In this document: positions 37,274 through 43,898 of the stretch, piece by piece
Position numbering within the stretch: the first letter of the stretch is position 1
Layout: every line of letters begins with the position of its first letter
Assembly (NCBI GenBank): GCA_964612595.1
Contig: CAZTFB010000001.1
Location: 195,058-259,057 of the forward strand
DNA from: an uncultured Gammaproteobacteria bacterium
GTDB lineage: Bacteria; Patescibacteriota; Microgenomatia; UBA1406; HO2-37-13b
Length of the DNA stretch: 64,000 bases
Reading direction: 5' to 3'
Made by a program: the position numbers and the translations under genes
The notes under the pieces: model-generated
Told to the model about the DNA's origin: nothing
Seen by the model: only the letters and a program-made list of their open reading frames with translations
Database searches by the model: none

Positions 37274-37340
37274 GCATGTATTATACCGCTATGTTGGATT
37301 GAAAAATTCTATAAAAAAGGTACAATATGGGTTGCAGTAA

Positions 37341-37353
37341 TGGGATTGTAGCT
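37341..37353 (+). repeat. 13-bp duplicate of the tRNA-Asp 5' end
   Basis: TGGGATTGTAGCT is identical to 37692-37704, where it forms the start of tRNA-Asp. Confidence 0.85.
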
Positions 37354-37423
37354 TTCCGACGTTGAGTCGGAATCGATGACAGTGGTTGAGCGGTCCGACG
37401 TCATGTCGGACAGGTCGCGAAGT

Positions 37424-37687
37424 ATGCCTTGTGTCTATATTATCAAATCAAGAAGGAATAATAGATATTACATTGGCTCGACTACAGATATTGTTGTAAG
37501 ACTCATGGAGCACAACAGAGGTAAAAATCCTTCAACTAAGAATAGGGGTCCGTGGGATATTGTATTTTCACAAGAATTTACATCGCTTCCTGAAGCAAGG
37601 AGAGTTGAAAGAAAGTTGAAAAGCTTCAAAAGTAGAAGAATAATTGATAAAATAGTCGCTACAGGAACTATTACTGTGAATCATTGA
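37424..37687 (+). CDS. GIY-YIG nuclease family protein (UPF0213/YhbQ-like)
   Basis: MPCVYIIKSRRNNRYYIGSTTDIVVRLMEHN..RVERKLK. Start set to M17. Confidence 0.8.
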   Translation: MPCVYIIKSRRNNRYYIGSTTDIVVRLMEHNRGKNPSTKNRGPWDIVFSQEFTSLPEARRVERKLKSFKSRRIIDKIVATGTITVNH

Positions 37688-37692
37688 AAATT

Positions 37693-37765
37693 GGGATTGT
37701 AGCTCAGTGGTTAGAGCGCTGCCCTGTCAAGGCAGAGGTCGCCGGTTCGAGCCCGGTCAGTCCCG
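37693..37765 (+). tRNA. tRNA-Asp (GUC)
   Basis: GGGATTGTAGCTCAGTGGTTAGAGCGCTGCCCTGTCAAGGCAGAGGTCGCCGGTTCGAGCCCGGTCAGTCCCG. Anticodon loop CTGTCAA. Confidence 0.9.
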
Positions 37766-37767
37766 CA

Positions 37768-43256: not shown

Positions 43257-43898
43257 ATGGAAGTCATTAAGAAAGTAATTGAGTTTGTTATGGAAATACT
43301 AGAAACCGTTACTTTTGTGGGATCACTCTTTATTGTCATTTACCTTTTTTTTATGCAACCCCACCAAGTTCGAGGGTCATCGATGGATACGACTTTTCGC
43401 AATAACGAATATATCCTTACGAACAAGTTATCCTATCGATTTGGCGTTCCAGAAAGAGGTGATGTTGTAGTCTTTAAGTCTCCTGAAAACAAAGACATAG
43501 ATTTCATCAAACGCATCATTGGCCTTCCTGGAGATAAAATAATGGTGCGTGATAATCAAGTATATCTAAACGGCTCTCCACTTAACGAGTCATACGTATT
43601 AGGCACAACACAGGTACATGAAGGAGGTTTTCTTAAAGACGGTCAAACTGTAACCGTACCCATGGGTCACCTATTTGTGATGGGCGATAATCGTCCTCGC
43701 TCGTCTGATTCTCGTACGTTTGGTCCCGTTCCTCAACAAGATATCATCGGCAAGGTTTTCTTCCGATACTTTCCATCAGATAGGGTTGGCACAATTAAAA
43801 CACCACGTTATTCCTCAGATAGTTTACGCAGAAACTCGTTTGTCTTTGTTCGGTTTCCCTTAACCTCAATAACCACCTTGGACTTTACTCGTGTTTGA
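43257..43898 (+). CDS. lepB: signal peptidase I
   Basis: Catalytic Ser in RGSSMDTTF, Lys in FIKRIIGLPGD, and GDNRPRSSDSR box. Its 3' end overlaps the convergent ParB-like gene by 91 nt. Confidence 0.9.
   Translation: MEVIKKVIEFVMEILETVTFVGSLFIVIYLFFMQPHQVRGSSMDTTFRNNEYILTNKLSYRFGVPERGDVVVFKSPENKDIDFIKRIIGLPGDKIMVRDNQVYLNGSPLNESYVLGTTQVHEGGFLKDGQTVTVPMGHLFVMGDNRPRSSDSRTFGPVPQQDIIGKVFFRYFPSDRVGTIKTPRYSSDSLRRNSFVFVRFPLTSITTLDFTRV

Follow-up and report, generated by a model that had tools for sequence, protein, structure and literature searches.

A minimal GIY-YIG nuclease cassette beside tRNA-Asp, with hairpin-substituted partial tRNA copies, and its counterparts at tRNA genes of several bacterial phyla

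Organization of the tRNA-Asp locus

The 64,000-nt stretch of DNA analysed here (the window) is read from the forward strand of contig CAZTFB010000001.1 (positions 195,058 to 259,057; GenBank assembly GCA_964612595.1), which is deposited as an uncultured Gammaproteobacteria bacterium and is placed by GTDB in the Patescibacteriota (Microgenomatia; UBA1406; HO2-37-13b). The source names of the closest homologues assign it to a bacterium of the Microgenomates/Woesebacteria group of the Candidate Phyla Radiation. The window carries a small, free-standing gene for a GIY-YIG nuclease upstream of an intact tRNA-Asp gene. The elements of the locus follow in the order of (i) a promoter-like site, (ii) a copy of tRNA-Asp positions 1-26, split by an insertion, (iii) a hairpin, termed H, (iv) a copy of tRNA positions 44-50, (v) the nuclease open reading frame (ORF) and (vi) the intact tRNA-Asp (Table 1). 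Positions in the tRNA are given in the linear numbering of the 74-nt tRNA gene. The tRNA similarity of the leader stops at 37418 and the ATG lies 5 nt on, while the intact tRNA-Asp begins 5 nt past the nuclease stop codon. A first-pass annotation of the window had recorded a pair of 13-mers, two hairpins, the 87-aa GIY-YIG gene, the promoter-like site and the tRNA-Asp, all of which are found where it had placed them. The whole insert is ~350 bp and holds no other gene of a mobile element, and neither a tyrosine nor a serine integrase is encoded in the interval from PolX to the peptidase S51 gene.

Table 1. Features of the tRNA-Asp locus in the window.
Feature	Position	Strand	Basis or remark
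Promoter-like site, TTGAAA-16-TACAAT	37299-37326	+	Sigma-70-like; 10/12 consensus positions
First 13-mer, one base plus copy of tRNA-Asp positions 1-12 (GGGATTGTAGCT)	37341-37353	+	Start of the pseudo-tRNA leader
Secondary insertion, 26 nt: hairpin 1 (TTCCGAC-GTTGA-GTCGGAA, exact, 37354-37372) plus TCGATGA	37354-37379	+	26-nt alignment gap
Copy of tRNA-Asp positions 13-26, CAGTGGTT-GAGCG, one base deleted	37380-37392	+	Alignment to tRNA-Asp
Hairpin H (GTCCGAC-GTCAT-GTCGGAC, exact), in place of the anticodon arm (27-43)	37393-37411	+	Conserved cis element
AGGTCGC, copy of tRNA-Asp positions 44-50 (variable loop, start of T-stem)	37412-37418	+	Alignment
GIY-YIG nuclease gene, 87 aa (stop codon 37685-37687)	37424-37687	+	Pfam; homologue alignment
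Intact tRNA-Asp(GTC)	37693-37766	+	ARAGORN; Rfam 71.6 bits at 37693-37765

The locus is single in the window. No second GIY-YIG gene, extra H or other partial tRNA copy is found there, the other five tRNAs of the window are without partial copies, and no further copy of either hairpin occurs in the window within 3 mismatches (chance expectation 0). Public gene calls start the ORF at the ATG at 37376 to give a protein of 103 aa. This longer reading is an over-extension and the 87-aa reading is correct, since most of the homologues found are 84-88 aa and the closest start with MPCVY.

The promoter-like site is nearly identical in the related loci L005, L007, L111 and L112 and also in the cassette-free L114, and a -10-like hexamer is found ~17-30 nt ahead of the tRNA in empty sites. 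Because it is near-identical in carriers and in L114, and is at a tRNA-typical distance from the pseudo-tRNA, the site is probably the native tRNA-Asp promoter that now drives the leader, the nuclease gene and the tRNA, which are predicted to be co-transcribed. As the first-pass annotation held, the cassette is located behind a tRNA promoter-like site and no intron is involved. Inside the 3' end of the nuclease ORF (37616-37653), ~35-70 nt before tRNA-Asp, there are a further two promoter-like sites that overlap each other, TTGAAA-17-AATAAT and, with a TG upstream, TTCAAA-17-TAAAAT. They share sequence with the codons of the conserved KLKSFKSR motif, and a separate tRNA-Asp transcript could start there. 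Between the -10 hexamer and the pseudo-tRNA, the sequence ATGGGTTGCAGTA (37328-37340) is conserved in L005, L007 and L111 and is loosely like a tRNA 5' end (GGGTTGCAG vs GGGATTGTAG); it may be an older and more decayed partial tRNA copy.

The pseudo-tRNA leader

The 13-mer TGGGATTGTAGCT has two exact copies only in the 64-kb window (37341-37353 and 37692-37704, 351 bp apart), of which the second consists of a single leader base and tRNA-Asp positions 1-12. The pair had been read as a 13-bp duplication of an insertion target at the 5' edge of the tRNA, a reading that does not survive comparison with the whole leader. Taken alone against the whole window, the 13-mer is weakly significant (blastn-short E 0.39). 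The local gapped alignment of the leader to tRNA-Asp scores 35.25, whereas 2000 dinucleotide shuffles score 14.5 +/- 2.6 and all stay below 35.25, and the similarity of the leader to the tRNA is also conserved in relatives. An uninterrupted copy of 26-27 nt (positions 1-26/27), followed by H, the 44-50 stub, the ORF and the intact tRNA, is found in L111, L016 and L020. Because the similarity runs to position 26 and resumes at 44-50, and because relatives carry the clean form, the 13-mer appears to be the surviving start of a tRNA-Asp copy (positions 1-26 and 44-50) and not a target-site duplication. That the 13-mer is to be reinterpreted in this way, and that the locus belongs to the class of cassettes described below, is held to be very likely. 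In L005, the GGGATT of the 13-mer is gone while the ORF and hairpin H are kept, and in L007 the D loop is lost while H and the ORF are kept. The 13-mer is accordingly the decaying part of the leader and H its conserved part.

The two hairpins of the leader had been described as near-identical, but they are not equivalent: the second (H) is the conserved one. Hairpin 1 is a secondary insertion of an H-like sequence after tRNA position 12. The insertion occupies the same position in L005 and, in a tRNA-Ile context, in L019, but is absent from L111, whose PolX is the most similar among the relatives (86% identity), and from L007, L016 and L020. The leader (37342-37418) has no Rfam match at E up to 10, and its predicted RNA fold is unremarkable overall (-31.6 kcal/mol, z = -1.44).

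The nuclease

The 87-aa product matches the Pfam GIY-YIG domain PF01541 at 57.9 bits (cut-off 22.6; E 1.3e-15). The catalytic residues Y5, Y16, H30 and E62 are invariant, and R26 is nearly so, in an alignment of 13 homologues. When the profile of these 13 homologues is searched against PDB, the UPF0213 proteins BH0048 (E 3e-12) and EF2693 (E 8e-9) are retrieved along with Slx1 (E 9e-5) and I-TevI (E 2e-3). The AlphaFold2 model (predicted local distance difference test, pLDDT, of 89.8) has a beta-beta-alpha-beta-alpha-alpha topology, and its top Foldseek matches are, in order, BH0048, Slx1-Slx4, At-HIGLE and the catalytic domain of I-TevI. As BH0048 and Slx1 outrank I-TevI by profile and by fold, the protein is a GIY-YIG catalytic domain of the UPF0213/Slx1 type and not closest to I-TevI or UvrC. 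At 87 aa, it has no residues outside the catalytic domain, and the C-terminal RING/PHD zinc finger of Slx1 is not present. Its match to the NCBIfam group I intron endonuclease model TIGR01453 (20.8 bits) falls below the cut-off of 56.

A search with the subfamily profile returns 23,021 cluster representatives when the cut-off is E <= 1e-3 and 4,501 when it is E <= 1e-10. Some of the relatives in the profile search (P0134, P0135 and P0144) are 166-214 aa in length and have two stretches that match the 87-aa profile. These proteins may be tandem-fused GIY-YIG domains and might represent translated tandem duplications of the cassette.

Gain, inheritance and loss at tRNA-Asp

The neighbourhood of the locus is syntenic in relatives, with genes for an M48 peptidase, LemA and PolX on one side and for peptidase S51, a LysM protein and tRNA-Gly on the other. 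The carriers of the cassette are L111 (PolX 86% identical to that of the window), L005 and L006 (80-81%), L007 and L112 (74%) and L016 (74%; Microgenomates OLB23). The tRNA-Asp sequence is identical in the window, L005, L007, L016, L111 and L114.

The insertion of a small GIY-YIG cassette at tRNA-Asp, as claimed in the first-pass annotation, is borne out by the syntenic loci L115, L105 and L109, in which the promoter is followed by a bare tRNA-Asp. These empty sites come from fairly distant relatives (PolX 41-63% identical). In L115 (63%), the tRNA-Asp lies 17 nt past the -10-like hexamer. In L105 and L109 (45% and 41%), PolX is divergent from tRNA-Asp, which is followed by tRNA-Gly (with tRNA-Thr in L105), as in the window. 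A different type of empty site is noted in L114 (GCA_008012185.1; PolX 71%; positions 1100-1160), where the cassette is absent and the 12-nt sequence AGAGCGGTCCGA, equivalent to the end of the D arm and the left half of H, is left between the conserved promoter-like site and tRNA-Asp. Because this D-arm/H footprint remains, L114 is interpreted as a secondary loss. The presence/absence polymorphism at a conserved site that is expected of a homing gene is, thus, observed between the carriers and L115, L105, L109 and L114. In the clade of the window, the cassette appears to have been gained once and then inherited vertically under purifying selection, with at least one loss.

The same design across bacterial phyla

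A scan of one genome per species yields 80 loci that encode relatives of the nuclease, which together with the window, L007, L008 and L011 make up the examined set (n = 84). The 80 loci span the Patescibacteria, Acidobacteriota (the majority), Chloroflexota, Ignavibacteria, Bacteroidota, Planctomycetes, Zixibacteria and others. A tRNA on the same strand is found within 60 nt of the ORF at 51 of the 84 loci and within 400 nt at 19 more, mostly with pseudo-units between. The tRNAs are of 13 anticodon classes, with Ala-GGC, Asp-GTC, Val-GAC and Ile-GAT the commonest. Thus, the expectation that GIY-YIG genes of this kind would be found next to tRNAs with a duplicated segment and a CCG-core hairpin is upheld for nearly all members of the nuclease subfamily in the 84 loci.

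Two architectures are distinguished: (i) type A (37 loci), in which the tRNA is upstream and ends ~10 nt before the ATG, while past the stop codon there is a D-arm remnant, H and an exact repeat of tRNA positions 43/44-76, and (ii) type B (14 loci, including the window), in which tRNA positions 1-26/27 are followed by H, a short stub that starts at position 44, the ORF and an intact tRNA that lies a few bases after, or overlaps, the ORF stop codon. The first-pass annotation had raised the question of whether each GIY-YIG gene adjoins a duplicated tRNA 5' segment; this applies to the window and to type B, but most members duplicate the 3' part of the tRNA (43/44-76) instead. The repeats are ~12-34 nt in length. 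No terminal inverted repeats are seen to bound the unit and the repeat length is not fixed, and the cassette does not, therefore, have the hallmarks of a transposon.

The tRNA-derived units are often multiplied. In L077 (1400-2150), tRNA-Thr(CGT) is followed by the whole ORF and its H-bearing pseudo-tRNA twice over, as a perfect tandem repeat with a period of 329 bp. In L027 (1400-2800), there are at least 11 H-bearing tRNA-Ala(43-76) units with a period of ~86 nt, of which three precede the intact tRNA-Ala and at least eight follow it; the region upstream of this tRNA is also duplicated, and the spacers resemble fused remnants of the ORF start and end. Three upstream units each are noted in L037, L011 and L019, and a second, internally deleted ORF is found in L014 and L075. 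Chimeras also occur. In the leader of L008, the 5' part of the local tRNA-Val is fused to a T-stem stub (AGGTCGGAGG) that is of the tRNA-Ile type, and the protein of this locus groups with those of tRNA-Ile-linked elements. Similarly, the 5' copy of L014 has an acceptor strand unlike that of the adjacent tRNA-Val. Both chimeras would fit recombination within tRNA homology and a switch of isotype.

A different GIY-YIG gene (78 aa) is noted at L008 (2720-3170), ~84 nt past a tRNA-Ala(GGC) that has a partial tRNA 5' copy just upstream; other GIY-YIG subfamilies may use tRNA genes likewise.

Hairpin H

Partial tRNA copies outside any called tRNA (n = 128) were used to anchor the hairpin count, with random anchors as the control. 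A perfect hairpin of at least 6 bp is found exactly at the position of the anticodon arm in 111 of the 128 copies, compared to 58 of 3200 random anchors (1.8%), and CCG is in the 5' arm of all 111. This anchored count replaces an unanchored scan of all loci for CCG-core hairpins, which gave 429 hits and is too permissive in GC-rich genomes. In total, 53 distinct hairpins fit the consensus YCCCGRY-N2-6-RYCGGGR, with the CCG...CGG core invariant, compensatory GC/AT changes in the pairs beside it and variable loops. The form of H differs by group: CCCGGC/GCCGGG in Acidobacteria, CCCGAT/ATCGGG in Chloroflexi, Bacteroidota and Zixibacteria, and TCCGAYG/CRTCGGA in the Candidate Phyla Radiation (CPR). 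Homologues of the nuclease at 52-59% identity are located by tRNA-Val or tRNA-Ile; here too the local tRNA is partly copied, and a TCCGAYG...CRTCGGA hairpin stands where the copy should have its anticodon arm. In some copies, a CCGAY-type hairpin also replaces or expands the T arm (L005, L007, L011, L054 and L075) or the D arm (window, L005 and L019).

In L005, L007, L016, L020 and L111, H either matches that of the window or differs from it by compensatory changes. Over the same divergence, the ORF has a ratio of nonsynonymous to synonymous substitution rates (dN/dS) of 0.09-0.20, with dS at least 1.5 and nearing saturation (window, L005, L007 and L016). As H and AGGTCG are identical or compensatorily changed where the synonymous sites of the ORF are near saturation, H and the ORF are both taken to be under purifying selection.

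A single break position for all junctions of H with the tRNA is ruled out, since the segments replaced in L077 (positions 30-35 only of the anticodon arm) and L085 (positions 38-47) do not overlap. Retention of the anticodon in the loop of H is true of the window, L093, L014 and L040 but is not general. A curated Rfam family for H or the pseudo-tRNA unit is not found in the window region and 8 related loci; the lone match to the unit is a weak one (14.4 bits) of a single 3' fragment to the tRNA-like domain of tmRNA.

Proposed mechanism and alternatives

On balance, the locus is judged to be a type B member of a widespread minimal nuclease cassette that resides at tRNA genes and has tRNA-derived homology arms. 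The cassette consists of (i) a nuclease gene of ~87 codons, (ii) the conserved palindromic hairpin H and (iii) a copied portion of the local tRNA, with H in the position of the anticodon arm. A mechanism based on recombination and the nuclease is put forward tentatively, as plausible though not quite favoured. The tRNA-derived segments would serve as portable homology arms, through which the unit of tRNA part, H, tRNA part and ORF recombines with the resident tRNA gene. One junction would be seamless and regenerate a working tRNA, while the displaced tRNA part would end at H. A crossover in the 5' arm (1-26) would yield type B, as in the window, and a crossover in the 3' arm (44-76) would yield type A, the commoner form. 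A linear fragment with tRNA sequence at both ends would need no other homology in the recipient, which could explain the spread of the cassette among unrelated flanks. The nuclease is proposed to make the break that drives recombination and tandem amplification, by analogy with Slx1 and SegB, and H may be either its cis site or a change that renders the displaced copy uncuttable. More doubtful, but still conceivable, is that the cassettes form an undescribed class of ~350-bp mobile elements, composed of the 87-aa nuclease and the CCG-core hairpin, which colonise tRNA genes across phyla by means of a hairpin- or cruciform-specific nuclease with H as its cis site. Such an element would carry a tRNA-derived homology arm with the hairpin at the anticodon-arm position, would depend for its integration on nothing but the universally conserved tRNA sequence, and would restore the tRNA and multiply in tandem. 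In that case, the large UPF0213 family of bacterial GIY-YIG proteins would receive a first biological role.

Several points weigh against this interpretation. The recombination steps are reconstructed from anatomy alone, the adjacent intact tRNA would stay a target if the anticodon arm is what is cut, and the junctions between H and the tRNA vary, as noted for L077 and L085. A DNA-binding domain linked to the catalytic domain, as is typical of homing genes, is missing; Seg and I-TevI-type enzymes have a C-terminal DNA-binding region, and its lack here leaves the site specificity unexplained. No close relatives are found in phage, viral-contig or plasmid collections, and no vector is, thus, apparent. 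Classical homing genes at fixed sites usually decay. The long vertical persistence of the cassette under selection fits a host-beneficial or addiction-type role equally well.

A role of this kind at the RNA level, with the nuclease gene a stable passenger of the tRNA operon and the H-bearing pseudo-tRNA a functional RNA, is unlikely, though the most probable of the alternatives. The pseudo-tRNA could be an mRNA-stabilising or processing leader or trailer, an autoregulatory site, or a decoy or antitoxin RNA like the repeats of type III toxin-antitoxin systems. The constraint on both H and the ORF would be expected of such a module, as would the close spacing of promoter-like site, leader, ORF and tRNA on one strand. 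Tandem H arrays beside the nuclease gene (L011, L019, L027 and L037) recall the toxI-toxN architecture. H also lies at the presumed 5' end of the mRNA where the tRNA is downstream, and at the 3' end where the tRNA is upstream, like a protective stem-loop, and H-like hairpins replace or expand the D and T arms of some copies. Against these, the presence/absence differences, the loss footprint, the isotype switches and the chimeric leaders point to mobility at the DNA level. The pseudo-tRNAs are fragments that are unable to form an acceptor stem, and a search of Rfam at E up to 10 does not recognise the leader of the window. Conservation does not extend to the loop of H, and the position of H relative to the ORF flips between architectures. 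Nearly all of the anchored stems are perfect; the few that are mismatched favour G-U no more than A-C on the sense strand, but are too few to count for or against a role as RNA.

That H has no function of its own, and is a scar of repair or results from unstable DNA secondary structure where tRNA segments are duplicated, is quite improbable: the varied H-tRNA junctions and the arrays suggestive of repeated breakage and repair would suit a scar, but the CCG...CGG core persists, with compensatory changes, from phylum to phylum and from one tRNA isotype to another, H is barely changed between lineages with synonymous sites near saturation, and H moves with the ORF through an isotype switch. Insertion by a staggered cut at the 5' edge of tRNA-Asp, with creation or regeneration of a 13-bp target-site duplication, is highly improbable. 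The two exact 13-mers do bracket the gene and relatives do have empty sites; however, the similarity extends beyond the 13-mer to position 26 and again at 44-50, with 26-27-nt copies in L111, L016 and L020, half of the 13-mer is lost in L005 with the gene kept, and the repeats of the family vary in length, are mostly of the tRNA 3' part and are not accompanied by terminal inverted repeats. Scarcely credible is an integrase remnant, in which the partial tRNA copy would be the attL/attR scar of a decayed phage or island and the GIY-YIG gene its leftover cargo. Integrative elements classically leave a partial copy next to an intact tRNA (PMC9897764), yet here the short insert between promoter-like site and tRNA has no integrase or element gene, the same ORF-plus-H unit recurs in 80 loci of several phyla, the segment duplicated in the window is from the 5' part of the tRNA whereas it is the 3' part that integrases displace, and H is unlike the anticodon arm whereas att cores are identical.

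Relation to known systems

SegB of phages T4 and T6 is a free-standing GIY-YIG homing endonuclease of tRNA gene clusters that recognises a conserved T-arm motif (PMC2330249). It drives recombination-dependent segmental amplification of tRNA-containing segments and is preferentially inherited via double-strand-break repair (PMC2330249; PMC13096335). Like SegB, the cassette gene is an intronless GIY-YIG gene among tRNA genes, and tandem tRNA-derived units flank it in many of the loci. By contrast, SegB is a phage protein, while the cassette protein is an 87-aa UPF0213/Slx1 catalytic domain encoded on chromosomes of CPR, Acidobacteriota, Chloroflexota and others, and a hairpin-substituted pseudo-tRNA is not described for SegB (PMC2330249; PMC13096335). 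SegB is the closest functional analogue of the cassette nuclease.

The closest family by descent is UPF0213/Slx1, as the UPF0213 proteins (BH0048 and EF2693) and Slx1/HIGLE are the best profile and fold matches and share the catalytic Tyr/Tyr/Arg/His/Glu pattern. Slx1 is structure-specific, with branched and hairpin-like DNA as its substrates, and cutting of this type would go well with a cis site that forms a hairpin or cruciform. Slx1 differs in its C-terminal RING/PHD finger and its need for Slx4, neither of which is found here. We know of no role for the bacterial UPF0213 proteins. A 2006 survey of the GIY-YIG superfamily describes the Slx1 cluster and does not mention linkage to tRNA genes or H (PMC1564403).

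Genomic islands and prophages at tRNA genes regenerate the tRNA and leave the displaced partial copy as a direct repeat (PMC9897764), and the anticodon and T loops are known sublocations of crossover (Williams 2002, as cited in PMC9897764). The cassette shares with these islands the regenerated tRNA and displaced partial copy but differs in having no integrase, an insert of ~350 bp, a foreign hairpin in the displaced copy and duplication of either the 5' or 3' part of the tRNA. Type III toxin-antitoxin (ToxIN-like) loci are similar in that a small nuclease gene is accompanied, on its own strand, by a short tandem array of structured repeats. The toxins of the ToxN type are RNases of an unrelated kind, and ToxIN-like repeats are not tRNA-derived, nor are the loci tied to tRNA genes.

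The finding is, thus, one of free-standing GIY-YIG elements at tRNA genes with a widespread architecture, of which no description was found in a full-text search of the literature (with incomplete coverage). If the interpretation of the cassette is correct, it would provide a function for thousands of small bacterial proteins annotated as "GIY-YIG nuclease family". The cassettes would explain one origin of the partial and tandem tRNA-like sequences by which the annotation of tRNAs is confused and which are distinct from integrase scars, and would represent a selfish gene that uses a 76-bp universally conserved gene as landing site and homology arms while leaving that gene intact. A nuclease with structure or sequence specificity could also be a compact tool. 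Persistence under purifying selection in the reduced genomes of CPR raises the question of a benefit to the host.

Additional observations

The sole tblastn match in the search for a second GIY-YIG gene in the window is at 43410 (E 5), inside a 213-aa ORF that looks like a signal peptidase. In L011-L013 (1600-3700), the cassette is located between tRNA-Ile(GAT) and tRNA-Ala(TGC), with 23S rRNA downstream (from L011 3011). Compared to the window, L005 (3433-6104) has two extra genes between tRNA-Asp and peptidase S51, one of which encodes a protein of 667 aa with a faint dockerin match; these genes are a second variable spot beside the same tRNA.

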